A stretch of 59,966 bases of DNA from a virus (Duplodnaviria; Caudoviricetes). The translations under genes and the position numbers were made by a program. The stretch is taken from positions 1 through 59,966 of the IMG/VR virus record IMGVR_UViG_3300020179_000034; one strand, given 5' to 3'. Of this stretch, positions 23,478 through 59,966 are shown one piece after another (the first letter of the stretch is position 1; the number at the start of each line of letters is the position of its first letter). The notes under the pieces are model-generated. The model worked only from the letters and a program-made list of their open reading frames with translations, ran no database searches and was not told where the DNA came from.

Positions 23478-24131
23478 CTACCTCACCTTGTAAAACTTAC
23501 ATTTCTCTACCGGACACCAACCGCACAAGCCAGTTGGTTTTTCGGGCCACATATTGTTTTCGTACGATAACTCTAATCTATTCAGGTCAAACTCAAACTC
23601 CTTCCAGAGTTTGTTTATATCAGACCGCAAATATTTCTCCGGCACAAACGAGTTCCTAGTTATAAACAGTAGCGCTGCCTTTATGTTAATCACTTCGGGA
23701 AAGTGACAGTAGGTCATCAACGCCATCAACTTCAATTGTTTCGGGTCTGGATACTTGTCACTACCAGTCTTGTAGTCGATGATGTATGCGTCTTCACCAT
23801 CTATTATCAGCAAGTCAACAATCCCACGAACCCAACGGCTATCATCGTTAAATTCACACGGCGTCTTGTCCAGTCGCAGTCCCATCTGATACTCGGGATA
23901 TTTATTTCCCGATATTTTCAAGAGTTCATCAAGCACGGGCTTGTAGTGTACGTAGTGCTTGGCAAGCGGCTTACCTTCACGTACGTAATCTTCAATAGCC
24001 TTGTGAACCTCTGTCCCATATAGCATCTGCTCCGTGACCTTCTTGACCACGGACTTGGCAACTTTGACCTCATAATACTGCCGAGGGCAGTTCACAAAAT
24101 CTTTTAGGCTGCTGTACGACCATTGAATCAT
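23478..24131 (-). CDS. PD-(D/E)XK exonuclease (Cas4/RecB-like)
   Basis: SYSSL..F..CP, GTEVH, GIVDL...DYKTG, QLKL, CGWCP...C. Confidence 0.88.
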   Translation of the reverse strand: MIQWSYSSLKDFVNCPRQYYEVKVAKSVVKKVTEQMLYGTEVHKAIEDYVREGKPLAKHYVHYKPVLDELLKISGNKYPEYQMGLRLDKTPCEFNDDSRWVRGIVDLLIIDGEDAYIIDYKTGSDKYPDPKQLKLMALMTYCHFPEVINIKAALLFITRNSFVPEKYLRSDINKLWKEFEFDLNRLELSYENNMWPEKPTGLCGWCPVEKCKFYKVR

Positions 24132-52353: not shown

Positions 52354-52595
52354 AAGCTCCGCAGCAGTCTCTTAAAGCGTGGGGTGATCAGAAATGGAGA
52401 ACCAAAAGTGGTAAACCCTCTAGCAAAACGGGTGAAAGGTATCTACCGGAAGCTGCAATCAAAGCTCTCAGCCCTGCGGAATACGCTCGTACGACGGCTG
52501 CAAAGCGCCGTGGCAAAGCTCAAGGCAAGCAGTTTGTTTCGCAGCCTAAAGGCATTAAAGAAAAAGTAAGGTCATATAGAAGGCAGGGCATGTAA
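52350..52595 (+). CDS. Small basic protein (DUF5872-like)
   Basis: QQSLK.W..QKW.T...RYLP..A...GKQFV. Confidence 0.65.
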   Translation: MKAPQQSLKAWGDQKWRTKSGKPSSKTGERYLPEAAIKALSPAEYARTTAAKRRGKAQGKQFVSQPKGIKEKVRSYRRQGM

Positions 52596-53320
52596 TGGTA
52601 GACAAGACTACAGCCACCACAGAATTTAACCTCGACCTCAATACGATTATTGAAGAGGCTTTCGAGCGTTGTGGGGCTGAACTGCGTACGGGTTACGATT
52701 TCCGTACGTCGAAGCGTAGTCTTGCCCTCCTGCTGATGGACTGGGCAAATCGCGGCATTAACCTATGGACGTTGGAGCAAGGCACTCAGACTTTGACTTA
52801 TAATCAAAGTACATATGATTTACCGGTGGATACGGTTGACCTACTTGACCACGTGATCCGTACGGGTACGGGTACGAACCAGCAAGACATCAACATCACG
52901 CGCATTTCATCCAGTACCTACCTTTCAATCCCTAACAAGAACGCGACGGGGCGTCCAATTCAAATTTGGATTAATCGCCGTACGGGTGCGACAGGTGCGG
53001 ATGATGCCGTGGTTTATCCGCAATTTGTAGTTTGGCCCAAGCCTGACAACACGACGACTTGGACGTTGGTATATACCCGGCTTCGCCGTATGTTTGATCC
53101 CGGCACGGGTGTAAACGGTCAAGACATTCCTTTTCGTTTTATGCCTTGCATGGTGGCTGGTTTAGCTTATTACCTATCGATGAAAATTCCCGGCGCGGAT
53201 GTTCGTATGCCGATGCTCAAGGCTCAATATGACGAAGCTTGGGATTTGGCATCTGGAGAAGATCGTGAGAAGGCGGCGGTTCGGTTCGTGCCACGTGAGA
53301 GTTTCTTGGGTGGCTACTAA
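52595..53320 (+). CDS. Head-tail adaptor-like protein
   Basis: Helical N-terminus; IPNK..TGRP, WPKPD and CMVAGLAYYL motifs. Confidence 0.6.
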   Translation: MVDKTTATTEFNLDLNTIIEEAFERCGAELRTGYDFRTSKRSLALLLMDWANRGINLWTLEQGTQTLTYNQSTYDLPVDTVDLLDHVIRTGTGTNQQDINITRISSSTYLSIPNKNATGRPIQIWINRRTGATGADDAVVYPQFVVWPKPDNTTTWTLVYTRLRRMFDPGTGVNGQDIPFRFMPCMVAGLAYYLSMKIPGADVRMPMLKAQYDEAWDLASGEDREKAAVRFVPRESFLGGY

Positions 53321-53877: not shown

Positions 53878-54074
53878 TGAAAAATACTTCTTACAATCAG
53901 CCGAAGCCCAATCCTGAATCAACGGGGCGTAATGGCTATCCTGATACGGACGTAAACAAGGGCGTCACCCACATGAAGATGAAAGGTGCGGGTGCCGCAA
54001 CTAAAGGCACAAAGTTTGTGTCACAGATTAATCTTGAAAATAACGCTAAGTATCGGGCGGGTTGGTCGCCGTGA
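53877..54074 (+). CDS. Small basic protein
   Basis: KMKGAGAATKG motif; translationally coupled. Confidence 0.65.
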   Translation: MKNTSYNQPKPNPESTGRNGYPDTDVNKGVTHMKMKGAGAATKGTKFVSQINLENNAKYRAGWSP

Positions 54075-54709
54075 ATTACAGTCAGCTTTCTACACTAATT
54101 CAAGATTATTGCGAGAGTACGGAGTCTAGCTTCGTCTCCAATATACCTACGTTTGTGCAGTTAGCTGAAGAGCGTATCTATAACTCGGTTCAGATTCCTG
54201 CGATTCGCAAGAACGTGACCGGGACGATGACGATTAATTTTCAGTATTTTCAATTACCGTCCGATTGGCTTTCGACGTTTTCATTAGCGGTAATTGACCC
54301 GACAACGGGTGAGTATGAGTACCTTTTAAACAAGGATGTAAACTACATCCGACAGGCGTACCCGCCGCCAAACTCGTACGGCAAGCCTAAGTACTATGCA
54401 ATTTGGGATGATACGAGCATGATTATTGGGCCTACGCCAAATCTTGCATACACGGCTGAACTGCATTACTACTATTATCCGACTTCTATCGTTAGCGCGA
54501 ATACGTCGTGGCTTGGCGATAACTTTGAAACGGTGCTGCTCTATGGGTCGCTTCGTGAGGCGTACATTTACCTCAAGGGTGAGCAGGACATGATGCAGTA
54601 TTACGACCAGAAGTACATGGAAGCCTTAGCTCAATTAAAGCGCCTTGGTGACGGTCTGGATCGTCAGGATGCGTACCGTTCTGGACAAGTTAGGGTGCCT
54701 GTCACATGA
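54071..54709 (+). CDS. Second adaptor/tail-tube-A-like protein
   Basis: LAEERI, LPSD, G.PKYY, GPTP and LLYGSL.EA motifs. Confidence 0.6.
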   Translation: MNYSQLSTLIQDYCESTESSFVSNIPTFVQLAEERIYNSVQIPAIRKNVTGTMTINFQYFQLPSDWLSTFSLAVIDPTTGEYEYLLNKDVNYIRQAYPPPNSYGKPKYYAIWDDTSMIIGPTPNLAYTAELHYYYYPTSIVSANTSWLGDNFETVLLYGSLREAYIYLKGEQDMMQYYDQKYMEALAQLKRLGDGLDRQDAYRSGQVRVPVT

Positions 54710-55427: not shown

Positions 55428-56330
55428 GTGGCAGGCGTCATAGTCGCCTTCGACGGTTGGAACGCTTCCGGCGTAGGCTGGGGCGAACAAGGTTGGGGGC
55501 AGGGAGTTGGTAATCTTACCGCGACTGGTGAAGTCGGCACGGTAGGAATTGCTGCGTCTGCAGTTGTTGTAGTTACAGACGTTTCGGCTAGCGGTGCAGT
55601 TGGCACCGTTACAGTTGTCGCTGCGGCAAATATTCCTGTTACCGGCGTTGAGGGTACGGGGCAGGTTGGGGATGTCTTTGTCGTTGGCGCTGCCAATGTT
55701 CTTGTTACCGGCGTTGAGGCGACTGGCGAGGTTGGCAATGTCACGGTTGCAGCCGATACCGTTGTCTTGGTCTCGGGCGTTTCGGCTACAGGCCAAATTG
55801 GTACGGTTACGGTCGTTGCGGAGGCTAATGTCTCCCTGACCGGCGTTGCAGCAACAGGTCAAATCGGTACGGTTGTTGTTGTCCCAGAAACCATAGTTAT
55901 CGTCTCAGGCGTTGCGGGAACGGGTGAGGTTGGGGATGTTGTTGTCGCTGCAGCGGCAGTTGCAGCGGTAACGGGCGTTCAGGCTTCGGGTCAAGTTGGC
56001 GACGTTTCGGTTAAGACCGATCAAGTTCTCTCTGTCACAGGCGTGGCAGGAACGGGGCAGATTGGCACCGTCGGTGTAGCGGTTGGCATTAACGTTTTTG
56101 TCACGGGCGTATCGGCTACGGGTGCGGTTGGCTCGGTTACTACATCTGCCGGGGCAAATGTTGTAGTCTCTGGTGTAACCGGAACAGGTGTTATAGGTGC
56201 AGTAAATATTTGGTCGGTTATTAATCCTGCTCAAAATGCAAATTGGACAGATATAAACGATTCTCAAACGGCAAATTGGAACGAAATTAGTACGTCGCAA
56301 AACCCAAATTGGACACAGATTGCGGCGTGA
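55428..56330 (+). CDS. Val/Gly/Thr-rich repetitive fibre-like protein
   Basis: About eleven 21-aa repeats of VTGVxATGxVGxVxV. Confidence 0.7.
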   Translation: MAGVIVAFDGWNASGVGWGEQGWGQGVGNLTATGEVGTVGIAASAVVVVTDVSASGAVGTVTVVAAANIPVTGVEGTGQVGDVFVVGAANVLVTGVEATGEVGNVTVAADTVVLVSGVSATGQIGTVTVVAEANVSLTGVAATGQIGTVVVVPETIVIVSGVAGTGEVGDVVVAAAAVAAVTGVQASGQVGDVSVKTDQVLSVTGVAGTGQIGTVGVAVGINVFVTGVSATGAVGSVTTSAGANVVVSGVTGTGVIGAVNIWSVINPAQNANWTDINDSQTANWNEISTSQNPNWTQIAA

Positions 56331-56341
56331 GGTAATGACAC

Positions 56342-59218
56342 ATGGCTAGTACATACAGCACTAATCTGGCGATTGAACTCATCGGTACTGGCGACCAAGC
56401 CGGTACATGGGGCAATACCACTAATACCAACCTTGGAACCCTGATCGAACAGGCGATTTCAGGTTACGTCACCCAAGCCGTTTCCACGGGAACCGATACC
56501 ACGATCACCATCCCGAACGGTGCCACGGGTGTCGCTCGTAACATGTACATCGAACTGACGGGTACAGGTGGGGCTAGTACGAATCTAATCGTTCCGTCCA
56601 ACAAGAAACTTTACTTCATCTTCAACAACAGCACCGGAGCGGTGACGGTGAAGGTGTCCGGTCAAACGGGCGTATCAGTACCACAAGGTAAGAAGATGGT
56701 GCTGACGAGTAACGGCACGGATGTGGTGAATGGCCTTAACTATATCGCTGATTTTGCCTCTAACTCCGCAACCATTACTCACCTGTCAGCGACTTCTGCG
56801 ACGATTACAAACCTTACGCTGACGAGCCTTGTCATCAGCAATCTCAGCATTGCTTCAGCCAACATTACAAATCTTACCGCCACCTCCCTCACCGTCTCCT
56901 CCGGTTCCACCCTAAATGGCGGCGTAGTCATTAACGAGCCGGGAGCAGATGCCGACACTCGCATCGAAGGCGACACCGACGCGAATCTGTTTTTTGCGGA
57001 TGCGTCAACGGATCGGATTGGGGTGGGGACGAATGCGCCACTTAGCAAATTTCAAGTAGCAGGACAGGTTCGCATTTCTGGCGTTTCTACCGGTTCAACA
57101 GCACTTGTGATTCCGGCTGGCGATATTCTTAGTGACGTTTCTTCTGGTGCGTTTGCTATTGGAAACTACGGCGATGCGTCCTCTGAAATGCGGATCAGCA
57201 CTCGCGGGTTTACTACGTTTAGAACCGGCGCGACGGTTGGTACGGATGGCACAGAACAAATGCGCCTCACCTCCACCGGCCTCGGCATCGGGACGAGCAG
57301 TCCTGTTGGAAAAGTACACGCCGTAGCCAGTACTGCTGGCACAACCTCGCTTTTTGAAAGAAGCACCGCATCCACGGCGGTTCCTGTTTTTGCCTCACGC
57401 TCGCTTGCAACGTCTTCTGGGGACATGGCTGATGGCTTCGGCCCTACTCACGCATTTGCAATTCAAGATGGCGCAGCGGTTATCAACCCCATTAGCGAAA
57501 TTGGCGCAGTGCGCGAAGGCGCGGATAACAGTGGTGCTTTGGTATTTAGAACTTATTCTGCTGGAACCGCAACGACACAGATGCGCCTCGACTCCTCTGG
57601 GAATTTGATTGTCGGTGGAACATCTGCACCGCTATCTGCGGCAAGTAGAGGCAATGTCACAATCAATGGCTCTAGCACAGCCATTATGAACCTGACTATT
57701 GGTGGCACAAACAAGGGTTATATCTTCCATGACGATTCCGCAATGGAAGTCTGGAACGCAGATAACTCTGACATGAAATTTGCCACCAACAACACCGAAC
57801 GCGCACGCATCACGAGTGGGGGGGATTTTGGGATTGGCACGAGTACGCCGGGGACAAAACTCCACGTCACCGGCAGCAACGGGTTTTTTGTTCAGTTCCT
57901 CAACTCGACTAATAACACTGGTGAAGGTATAGCCTTTGGATCTGGCACCAACCTTGGACGCATATCTTCCAACGGCGCAAGTACTGCGCTGACGCTTGAG
58001 ACCAACGGCTCCGAACGCGCACGCATCACGAGTGGGGGGAATTTTGGGATAGGCGATACCGGCCCATCTTCAAAACTCCAAGTCGCTGGTGACATCCGTA
58101 TATCTGGAGCAGGGTCTAGTATTGACGGATACGATGGAGGCTTTCTTGATTACTCCTCAAGTGCATTGAGGATTAGAGGACAAAACTCTACAGGCGGAGT
58201 CATAACATTTATGACCTCTGCAAATGGCGCAGGAAATATTTCCACCGAACGCGCACGCATCACGAGTGATGGGAATTTGGGGGTGGGGACGACGAGTCCG
58301 CAGGCACGACTGATGGTTGGTGGGTCTGCCGATTTTCCGGTTCTCAAGATTTCTCGGTCCGATGCTAGTTACAATAGCGGAATCCTGTCGCTAGGTGATG
58401 GCAATGGCACCACGAATAACGTTGGCATATGGCGCGGTGCGGCAAACAGCGTCTCGTCTGGTGGCAATGTGATGAACGTCGGCGGCTATGATGGCATCGT
58501 GTTTACCGCCGGCAATGCTGCACTTGGCTCACAAACCGAACGCGCACGCATCACGAGTGGGGGGAATTTTCTAGTTCAAAAAACAACGTCAAATAACACC
58601 GACACAGGAATAAACTGGATTCCTAACGATTATCTTGTTGTTACCAATAATGCAACTAGTTCGGGTGATAGAGTTTTGATGGTGAATCGTCAGAACTCAG
58701 ATGGCACTTTGGTAGAGTTTCGCCAAGAAAATGTCAACGAAGGCACCATCTCTGTTAGCGGTAGTACTGTTTCCTACAACGGCGGTCACTTATCACGCTG
58801 GTCGCAATTCTCAGACGGTAGCCACCCCGATTTAGTCAAAGGCACCGTGATGACCAACCTTGACCAGATGGCGGTGTGGATTAATCCAGAGACGGGCGAA
58901 CCCGAAGAAAACGAACAGTTGAACTGCATGAAGGTGTCGGATGTTGAAGGCGATCCGAACGTCGCAGGTGTGTTCGTAAATTGGGACGGCGAAAGCGATC
59001 TAAACATCGCCATGACGGGCGACATGATTATCCGTATCGCTCAAGGCGTGGTGGTTCAGCGCGGTGACTTGCTGATGTCGGCGGGTGACGGTACTGCCAA
59101 GCCGCAGGGTGATGATATTCGCCGCAGCAAAACCGTTGCCAAAGTCACATCAAACCATGTCACTTGCACCTACGAGGATGGCTCTTACTGCGTCCCATGC
59201 GTGTTGATGGCGTGTTAA
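56342..59218 (+). CDS. Tail fibre/receptor-binding protein
   Basis: Anchor N-terminus (G...GTWG..TN.N), repeated ERARITSGGN-GIGTxxP modules, C-terminal chaperone-like domain. Confidence 0.85.
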   Translation: MASTYSTNLAIELIGTGDQAGTWGNTTNTNLGTLIEQAISGYVTQAVSTGTDTTITIPNGATGVARNMYIELTGTGGASTNLIVPSNKKLYFIFNNSTGAVTVKVSGQTGVSVPQGKKMVLTSNGTDVVNGLNYIADFASNSATITHLSATSATITNLTLTSLVISNLSIASANITNLTATSLTVSSGSTLNGGVVINEPGADADTRIEGDTDANLFFADASTDRIGVGTNAPLSKFQVAGQVRISGVSTGSTALVIPAGDILSDVSSGAFAIGNYGDASSEMRISTRGFTTFRTGATVGTDGTEQMRLTSTGLGIGTSSPVGKVHAVASTAGTTSLFERSTASTAVPVFASRSLATSSGDMADGFGPTHAFAIQDGAAVINPISEIGAVREGADNSGALVFRTYSAGTATTQMRLDSSGNLIVGGTSAPLSAASRGNVTINGSSTAIMNLTIGGTNKGYIFHDDSAMEVWNADNSDMKFATNNTERARITSGGDFGIGTSTPGTKLHVTGSNGFFVQFLNSTNNTGEGIAFGSGTNLGRISSNGASTALTLETNGSERARITSGGNFGIGDTGPSSKLQVAGDIRISGAGSSIDGYDGGFLDYSSSALRIRGQNSTGGVITFMTSANGAGNISTERARITSDGNLGVGTTSPQARLMVGGSADFPVLKISRSDASYNSGILSLGDGNGTTNNVGIWRGAANSVSSGGNVMNVGGYDGIVFTAGNAALGSQTERARITSGGNFLVQKTTSNNTDTGINWIPNDYLVVTNNATSSGDRVLMVNRQNSDGTLVEFRQENVNEGTISVSGSTVSYNGGHLSRWSQFSDGSHPDLVKGTVMTNLDQMAVWINPETGEPEENEQLNCMKVSDVEGDPNVAGVFVNWDGESDLNIAMTGDMIIRIAQGVVVQRGDLLMSAGDGTAKPQGDDIRRSKTVAKVTSNHVTCTYEDGSYCVPCVLMAC
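57795..58559 (+). repeat. Four exact 24-nt repeats CCGAACGCGCACGCATCACGAGTG in the tail fibre gene
   Basis: Start at 57795, 58011, 58245 and 58536. Confidence 0.95.
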
Positions 59219-59230
59219 TTAGGAGCAACC

Positions 59231-59392
59231 ATGTCTGACGTTGAACTGAAACTATCGCTTGAAGAAGCCGTCGCCATCGTGAACTTGATCGGGTCACTCC
59301 CGACGAGCCAAGGCGCGTGGCCGCTGTTTGAAAAACTCAAGGCGCAAGTTGAACCGCACTTGCCCAAATCTGAAGAGGTATCTAAACAATGA
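59231..59392 (+). CDS. Variant copy of the 80..241 protein
   Basis: One amino-acid change (T to V); other differences synonymous. Confidence 0.8.
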   Translation: MSDVELKLSLEEAVAIVNLIGSLPTSQGAWPLFEKLKAQVEPHLPKSEEVSKQ

Positions 59393-59709
59393 GTACGGTA
59401 ATTACTTGGTCTGTCACCGCGATGGACTGCTACCCCGAAGCCGACAACCATCAAGACGTTGTGTTCAATTGTCATTGGACTTGCGCTGGCGTGGACGGCG
59501 ACTATTCGGGCAGCGTCTATAGCACTTGCTCTGTCCCCGCTCCGAGCGGTTCGTTTACGCCGTATGCGTCCCTCACGCAAAACCAAGTCCTCGGCTGGAT
59601 TTGGGCGAATGGCGTGGACAAGGACAGCGCAGAGGCAGCGGTTGAGCAGCAGATCGCCAATGCCAAGAACCCTCCGGTAGTCACGCCGCCGTTGCCTTGG
59701 GTTGCGTAA
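59389..59709 (+). CDS. Variant copy of the 238..558 protein
   Basis: 106 aa with a few substitutions. Confidence 0.8.
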   Translation: MSTVITWSVTAMDCYPEADNHQDVVFNCHWTCAGVDGDYSGSVYSTCSVPAPSGSFTPYASLTQNQVLGWIWANGVDKDSAEAAVEQQIANAKNPPVVTPPLPWVA

Positions 59710-59966
59710 TGACCGCCAACACCGTCTTCTTGCTGATCTTCGTAGTGCTTCAGGTGCTAGACATCTGGACGACGTTGACAGCACTCAAGATGGGACACCG
59801 GGAAATGAACCCGGTGCTGGCAAAAGCGTTTGAATATGCCGAGCCGCTGGTAGTCATGGTCATCATCAAGTTAGCCGGGGTCTGGGCTTTGTGGTGGGCA
59901 GATATGTACTGGCTGACGGGGTTGATGTGCGCGGCGTATCTGTGGGTAGTGAATAACAACTTGGAT
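59709..59966 (+). CDS. Variant copy of the DUF5658-like membrane protein (3' partial)
   Basis: Runs off the window end. Confidence 0.7.
   Translation, partial: MTANTVFLLIFVVLQVLDIWTTLTALKMGHREMNPVLAKAFEYAEPLVVMVIIKLAGVWALWWADMYWLTGLMCAAYLWVVNNNLD

Follow-up and report, generated by a model that had tools for sequence, protein, structure and literature searches.

Among the described routes by which phage fibre genes are remodelled, motif recombination in the T-even phages is the closest known case to the locus discussed here, a tail-fibre gene of an uncultured lake phage. In the T-even fibre and adhesin genes g37 and g38 recombination occurs at short motifs, the His boxes and the glycine-rich motifs (GRMs), and yields chimeric adhesins from a shared pool, as set out in passages of Trojet et al. 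2011 (PMC3157838). The gene considered here occupies positions 56342 to 59218 on the + strand of a 59,966-base stretch of DNA, hereafter the window, which is the whole of virus record IMGVR_UViG_3300020179_000034 and is about 95% complete by estimate. For motif recombination in T-even fibres Trojet and colleagues cite the work of Tetart (1996, 1998). The window locus agrees with the T-even case in every feature examined: short conserved motifs, here called junctions and including a recurring 24-nucleotide (nt) sequence (the 24-mer), lie between variable segments, the DNA of the motif is conserved between divergent genes, and the boundaries of exchanged segments fall in or near the motifs. It differs in that its shaft is built of a MAT-like repeat and not of His boxes or GRMs, that its carriers are uncultured lake phages, podovirus-like by gene content, and that its junctions form three position-specific types which keep a proximal-to-distal order and whose synonymous conservation could be quantified. 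It also differs in being known from sequence alone, so that what is seen is the variety of tips after the junction and not host range.

A related precedent is relaxed recombination, as carried out by lambda Red-beta, RecT and Erf, in which exchange takes place at short perfect identity within diverged sequence; passages of De Paepe et al. 2014 (PMC3945230) give minimal pairing segments of 31-34 bp for RecA and 23-27 bp for Red-beta, and the 24-35 nt of exact identity between copies of the 24-mer match this range of 23-34 bp. At the window locus, however, the short identities are recurrent standard motifs at module boundaries rather than chance remnants, and no single-strand annealing protein of the Rad52-like kind was recognised among the open reading frames (ORFs) scanned in the record. 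The shaft repeat itself is homologous to the Bdellovibrio MAT fibres (8ond, E 2.2e-8; 8ojn, 5.4e-5; 8oml, 2.7e-3), with an alignment stretch that reads gSERmRIdtsGNlGlGtaaPtskLhV, and its GIGTxxPxxKL half is like the published MAT capping-loop consensus, as judged by eye only. MAT fibres likewise have a modular shaft and varied tips with and without Peptidase_S74, according to passages of Caulton et al. 2024 (PMC10769870), but they are proteins of the bacterial surface and carry a signal peptide. The passages found of that paper speak of recombination solely in the methods, where strains are constructed, and say nothing of junction DNA, and a literature search for strings of the junction motif (GNVGIGT, NVGIGT, GIGTTSP, GNLGIGT) gave no match.

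The receptor-binding end of phage fibres is also diversified by diversity-generating retroelements (DGRs), shufflons and the Gin/Cin systems. DGRs need a reverse transcriptase and a template repeat, and shufflons and invertible segments (Gin/Cin) need a site-specific recombinase and inverted sites. An earlier note on this DNA, made from the letters alone, had claimed that no invertase or reverse transcriptase is encoded and that the fibre is diversified without a DGR or shufflon, and both statements hold for the record: searches for RVT_1, Resolvase and Phage_integrase gave no match, no ORF matched a reverse-transcriptase PHROG, the repeat search of the fibre gene returned only short junction families and no long near-identical pair of the template/variable kind (which differs at adenines), and there are no junction copies on the reverse strand. 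Nor does the record resemble pilE/pilS-type systems, as it holds no unexpressed donor cassettes, all four copies of the 24-mer lying in one gene and none elsewhere in the 59,966 bases. The module donors are other phages.

The junctions are preferred sites of exchange in the shaft of these fibres, although not the sole ones. The window gene encodes 958 amino acids (aa) arranged as an N-terminal anchor, a modular shaft and a C-terminal tip, and its product matches the PHROG tail-fibre families phrog_18345 (7.8e-20) and phrog_9942 (6.5e-17), while a Pfam scan of the ORF found no family. The 24-mer CCGAACGCGCACGCATCACGAGTG occurs in it exactly four times, as the earlier note had reported, at 57795, 58011, 58245 and 58536, always on the + strand and always in the frame that reads (T/S)ERARITS, with spacings of 216, 234 and 291 nt (72, 78 and 97 codons). 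A search of the record that allowed up to three mismatches brought up no further copy, none appeared in 100 shuffles, and the record has none outside the fibre gene. The G-rich extension that was said to follow the copies is present after three of the four, the third copy continuing instead as GATGGGAATTTG. The full junction motif is (T/S)-E-R-x-R-(I/L)-x-S-x-G-N-x-G-I-G-T-x-x-P. A second form, previously placed near 57256 and 57577, was recovered at 57256-57279 and 57577-57600 with 79% identity, and relatives split it into two distinct recurrent junction types, A and B.

In the window fibre one A, one B and four C junctions, all on the + strand, separate divergent module bodies. Junction A (GTEQMRLTSTGLGIGTSS, 57251-57303) and junction B (TTQMRLDSSGNLIVGG, 57572-57619) belong to repeat family D2, and their DNA cores, that of B being ATGCGCCTCGACTCCTCCGGC, recur in relatives. 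The C junctions comprise C1 (TERARITSGGDFGIGTST, 57795-57847, the 24-mer with its extension), C2 (SERARITSGGNFGIGDTG, 58011-58063), C3 (TERARITSDGNLGVGTTS, 58245-58297) and C4 (TERARITSGGNF, 58536-58570), which joins shaft to tip. The module bodies between the junctions are as divergent as had been claimed, with protein identities of 21-41% and DNA identities of 41-49%. Runs of six to seven G, written in the rarest Gly codon, lie inside junctions at 57818-57824, 58034-58039 and 58559-58564 and may slip in replication or transcription.

The DNA of the junctions is conserved beyond the constraint of protein and codon usage. Given the codon frequencies of 42 non-redundant related fibre genes, the chance that all seven ERARITS codons are shared is 1.5e-4 for two copies and 1.5e-11 for four. 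Conservation was then followed in a blind set of 79 relatives, recruited by N-terminal peptides without reference to junction DNA, in which 53 junction instances have unrelated flanks. At residue-identical sites in these instances, counted as offsets from the conserved Arg, codon identity is 1.4-2.4 times expectation from -5 to +4, with the Glu codon (offset -3) as the exception at 1.10 times, 1.2-1.7 times at +6 to +13 and about 1.0 farther out. The codon preceding Glu is NCC in 18 of 21 instances despite its varying residue, with Thr always ACC (10/10) and Ala always GCC (7/7). The earlier note had held that selection on the protein alone cannot explain the synonymous identity of ERARITS, and had proposed comparing dS at the junctions with that in the modules; the chance estimates bear this out, as does a comparison with the N-terminal domain, made in ten blind-set genes of one N-terminal family (45 pairs). 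Synonymous codon identity there is 0.94 in ERARITS against 0.65 at identical residues of the N-terminal domain, which in the same genes has 88% protein identity; the ERARITS codons are wholly identical in 36 of the pairs, and the 90 nt directly upstream of the junction are 28% identical. No RNA structure was found at the four junctions (z-scores 0.72, 0.92, -1.16 and 0.77).

The search of viromes for the 24-mer, also proposed at the outset, found it exactly in five other viral contigs and 31 metagenome loci, always in frame within fibre-like ORFs. Three junction types with nearly fixed DNA recur among the relatives, namely type A, TE(Q/G)MRLTSTGLGIGT, type B, E(R/K)MRLDSSGN, and type C, ERARITSGG, and their order A, B, C is held in 27 of the 28 genes with two or more types. 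C-type junctions number from one to four per gene, a variation that shows module gain and loss only indirectly. The C junction exists as two alleles, the window form (allele 1) with GCA and AGT and allele 2 with GCC and AGC, the latter accounting for 18 of the 23 ERARITS of the blind set. In the set recruited through the 24-mer, 36 of 38 C-type junctions have GCA as their Ala codon, and in the blind set 23 of 27 have GCC; of the 13 genes with at least two such junctions, 11 keep to one Ala codon. The pattern looks like homogenisation within gene pools, although the two sets differ in ascertainment. Fibres of many families have the junction DNA in common, and in them it joins unrelated modules: exact allele 1 is found in fibres of seven of the nine N-terminal families, and allele 1 or 2 precedes six of the eight tip families, Peptidase_S74 tips included, two relatives (L001 and L005) carrying Peptidase_S74 after the very 24-mer of the window.

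The window fibre gene is a patchwork, the best matches of its parts sitting in different contigs, and the boundaries of the shared stretches lie at junctions. A stretch at 56953-57303 is 99.7% identical to L111 over 351 nt and ends at junction A (57303). A shaft module of 232 nt (57598-57829, + strand) is 100% identical to one in L099 with unrelated flanks on either side, its edges lying inside junctions B (57598) and C1; in L099 this module is the last before a Peptidase_S74-type tip, and in the window three more modules follow it. From the 5' edge of C4 to the stop (58535-59215) the window is 99.7% identical to L003 over 681 nt, identity jumping from about 70% at that edge, and the shafts of the two are unrelated. 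L094 and L120 match at 93.6% from 58546, and L115 matches only from 58739, within the tip.

L003 is a sister strain of the window phage with a swapped shaft. Over the 3 kb upstream the two are about 100% identical except for the patches 54042-54341 and 56142-56441, and the 5' edge of the shaft replacement is the first junction, a degenerate one (ASTDRIGVGT, 57002-57040, + strand), where the alignment loses identity. The patch at 56142-56441 (69-87% identity), which runs from the C-terminal end of a repeat protein 100 nt into the fibre gene, is probably what had been described as a strain bubble beside this gene. It may be a co-varying interface. The other patch (79-89% identity) covers the start of an SU10-type adaptor gene.

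Breakpoint clustering, a further comparison that had been suggested, was assessed in 68 non-redundant genes from the ends of ungapped high-scoring segment pairs (HSPs). When only ends followed by 90 nt at less than 70% identity were retained (99 contexts), 14 of the 99 ends were no more than 20 nt away from a junction core, where 5.9 would be expected, and many of the remaining ends fell at the GNxGIGT half of the motif, outside the first definition of a junction. Zones covering both halves hold 32 of 87 merged breakpoints, with 9.3 expected, and in the shaft alone 32 of 39 distinct breakpoints (binomial p 2.5e-14; zones defined post hoc). Of 24 distinct cassettes with unrelated flanks on both sides, five have both ends in the zones and ten have one.

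Exchange at the junctions is also visible at the level of the population. Parts of the fibre gene are contained in 24 lake-water metagenome runs, and Logan contigs (k=31) of four of them (X1, X2, X4 and X8) were aligned to the gene. The contigs break at every junction, and other sequences enter and leave there. The pieces from X1 span 57005-57289, 57274-57814, 57799-58039, 58036-58299 and 58271-58564; contigs begin or have loose ends at 57005, 57021 and 57039 in the degenerate junction, and breaks fall at 57274-57289 in junction A, 57799-57822 in C1, 58036-58039 in C2 and 58264-58299 in C3. Modules specific to the window have depths of about 39-63x in X1, 43-59x in X2, 2.6-5.6x in X4 and 0-8x in X8, and the ends of the gene have about 60-110x in all four alike. 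The population carries different shafts flanked by the same ends of the gene. Because the depths of the window modules rise and fall together over the four runs, the data fit a window shaft that belongs to one genome, with X4 and X8 holding other shafts. Apparent joints between junctions in the aligned contigs were considered as deletions and rejected, as unknown letters lie between them.

We consider it likely that general homologous recombination at conserved motifs, as in the T-even fibre genes, shuffles the modules and tips of these fibres. This is the best reading because no dedicated enzymes, sites or cassettes were found and because 24-35 nt of identity fits the pairing minima. Two fibre genes would meet in one cell, through co-infection or through infection of a cell with a prophage, and homologous recombination, by host RecA or by phage functions that have escaped recognition, would pair them at a junction of near-constant DNA, giving an in-frame chimera in structural register. 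With types A, B and C at proximal to distal positions, exchanges would thereby keep the order of modules, the repeated C junctions would let their number change, and the last C junction would swap the tip. The identity of the junctions may be kept by repeated exchange or conversion, perhaps with selection for exchangeability, and the outcome would be a diversification of host range; both, like the recombination pathway, are what we infer from the pattern of exchange. The earlier proposal that the junctions are module-swap sites within a candidate cassette-shuffling system therefore stands for the swapping, which the shared stretches, the sister strain and the breakpoints all display, and not for the system, no dedicated one having been found and ordinary homologous recombination sufficing.

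A more far-reaching version, which we put forward tentatively and think rather doubtful, is that the junctions are standardised ordered linkers (A, B, C) whose DNA is itself selected for exchangeability and which serve a community-wide cassette library. At least seven attachment and at least six tip families would then share one combinatorial library of shaft and tip cassettes, with a separate junction allele as the mark of each gene pool. Linkers of this kind have reportedly been postulated by the modular theory of phage evolution, and the window junctions would be a natural example of them.

Several observations weigh against recombination centred on the junctions. A first, naive breakpoint test found no clustering, with 36.4 HSP ends expected at 20 nt or less from a junction core and only 19 of 680 observed there; it was replaced because most HSP ends are scattered mismatches in the conserved N-terminal domain, and clustering emerged only once such ends had been filtered out. 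The junction zones were widened to both motif halves after the filtered list had been seen and are thus a post-hoc definition. Away from the junction motifs, 48 of the 87 breakpoints fall in the N- or C-terminal domains, and nine of the 24 cassettes have neither end in a junction zone. Part of the excess in codon identity may stem from recent common descent of the junction copies and not from maintenance. A PHROG scan of 71 ORFs of the record recognised no recombinase, a PD-(D/E)XK nuclease at 23481-24131 being the only candidate recombination function in it. The depths of Logan contigs are coarse, and all genes come from short-read assemblies, in which module order has no long-read confirmation; since no Logan contig spans a junction, these contigs speak neither for nor against that order. 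Many of the contigs and runs may derive from one lake campaign, so that the samples are not independent.

Recombination at the junctions has also to be set against explanations that would do without it. Were the motif simply an essential structural element written in preferred codons, its DNA identity would have nothing to do with exchange; the protein motif is indeed conserved as far as the Bdellovibrio MAT fibres, and CGC, ATC, GAA and ACG are, for their residues, the codons that these genes use most. Yet GCA and AGT are not preferred, GGG is the rarest Gly codon (0.14 usage) although the junction carries GGGGGG, and NCC is kept where the residue varies, and neither the chance of identical codon sets, nor the higher synonymous identity than in the N-terminal domain, nor the termination of shared stretches at junctions follows from protein constraint, which makes this explanation exceedingly unlikely. 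Concerted evolution within a single gene, by conversion among repeats born of tandem duplication and with no exchange between phages, would account for the likeness of Ala codons within genes (11/13). It is hard to reconcile with the presence of the same junction DNA as a single copy in fibres of seven N-terminal and six tip families, with near-identical modules beside unrelated neighbours in different genes, and with module bodies too divergent to be aligned as recent duplicates, and as a sole explanation we regard it as very improbable; exchange between genomes is evident, and within-gene conversion may be an additional process.

A different objection is that assemblers jumped between strains at the shared junctions and that the mosaics are chimeras, since single samples contain several genotypes with junctions in common, the k=31 contigs break at every junction, and the order of modules is known from short reads. 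The exact repeats, however, are merely 24-35 nt, shorter than reads, and the larger k-mers of standard metagenome assemblers exceed this length. The window modules co-vary in depth over four runs as one genome should, and the ending of shared stretches at junctions is a property of the contig graph rather than of the threading of contigs, and we give the objection little credence. As to a dedicated site-specific mechanism, in which a nuclease or recombinase recognises the 24-mer, for instance a homing-type endonuclease that cuts junctions, the conservation of the DNA is very sharp and spans a codon of varying residue, and an HNH_3 endonuclease gene lies directly 3' of the fibre gene of one relative (L006, 1838-2296). 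But the record has no matches to a reverse transcriptase or to a serine or tyrosine recombinase, the 24-mer has no inverted copies, and the genes neighbouring the fibre are not conserved enzymes; three junction sequences, two alleles and other conserved patches all serve as breakpoints, which fits exchange driven by homology, so a dedicated mechanism appears highly unlikely. The HNH_3 protein (2.2e-16) also has a weak AP2 domain match, and a homing-type nuclease at the L006 locus could stimulate local exchange.

The shaft is flanked by two terminal domains. The N-terminal domain (56342-57001, + strand), which is conserved and serves virion attachment, is itself mosaic, being 96% identical to L092 over 56339-56886 and holding many breakpoints away from the junction motifs; it is common to 48 of the 58 genes with a complete 5' end. 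The C-terminal tip (219 aa, 58559-59215, + strand), presumed to be the receptor-binding end, is one of eight tip families, defined by the sequence after the last junction, and its family has 12 members. No Pfam family was found in this tip, nor a Peptidase_S74 domain at its C-terminus; a weak protein-atlas lead points to the Peptidase_G2 autoproteolytic domain (score 0.92, 144 shared features), and a protein of Roseobacter phage CRP-831 is 70.5% identical to the window fibre over residues 790-958. The fibre is presumably trimeric, and an AlphaFold2 (AF2) monomer model of a shaft fragment was poor (mean predicted local distance difference test score, pLDDT, 45.5).

Allele-2 junctions were also met in fibre genes of three contigs (L121, L122 and L124) binned with metagenome-assembled genomes (MAGs) of Ilumatobacteraceae, Candidatus Fonsibacter lacus and Bdellovibrionota. 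The three are probably contigs of phages that ended up in MAG bins, and as hints of hosts they are weak at best. The Bdellovibrionota MAG was considered as a sign that phage fibres are connected with a predatory bacterium, and this was rejected, as the L124 fibre is adjoined by phage-like lysis genes (Peptidase_M15_4 and a DUF5658-like membrane protein), for which reason this contig is probably a phage contig. An unrelated ORF of a Spirillospora contig (L123) contains the peptide ERARITSG with exact allele-2 DNA (a 23-mer) and was set aside, since in a G+C-rich genome such a match appears to have arisen by chance.

Directly upstream of the fibre gene, at 55428-56330, lies a 300-aa protein of repeats of about 20 aa (VTGVxATGxVGxV), for which no Pfam or PHROG family was found and whose repeats resemble one another at about 68% in DNA; it is also present in relatives with a different fibre, at L001 2992-3897 (- strand) and L003 1219-2121. 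Two paralogous SU10_adaptor proteins are encoded at 52595-53317 (1.7e-6) and 54062-54706 (8e-25). Downstream of the fibre are a DUF7936 protein (59389-59706, 4.3e-26) and a DUF5658 membrane protein (59709-59966, 7.6e-9), and the DUF5658 protein also neighbours the fibre in L124, beside the lysis cassette. The record is podovirus-like in its portal, large terminase, family A DNA polymerase and primase-helicase, and its 1929-aa protein at 11007-16793 matches DarB-like antirestriction families in the C-terminal part (6.7e-77) and, weakly, virion RNA polymerase in the N-terminal part.

The exchange of modules at conserved motifs is a known principle of fibre evolution, met here in uncultured freshwater phages. 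Phage host range is set largely by fibre tips, and the reshuffling of fibres in uncultured environmental phages has mostly been inferred from cultured coliphages; the window locus offers a clean case of it. Primers or k-mers designed on the junctions could be used to catalogue fibre cassettes in lake metagenomes, and the junctions mark natural, structure-compatible splice points for the construction of chimeric fibres. Should the DNA of the junctions indeed be selected for exchangeability, this would indicate that evolvability itself is under selection in the receptor-binding proteins of phages.

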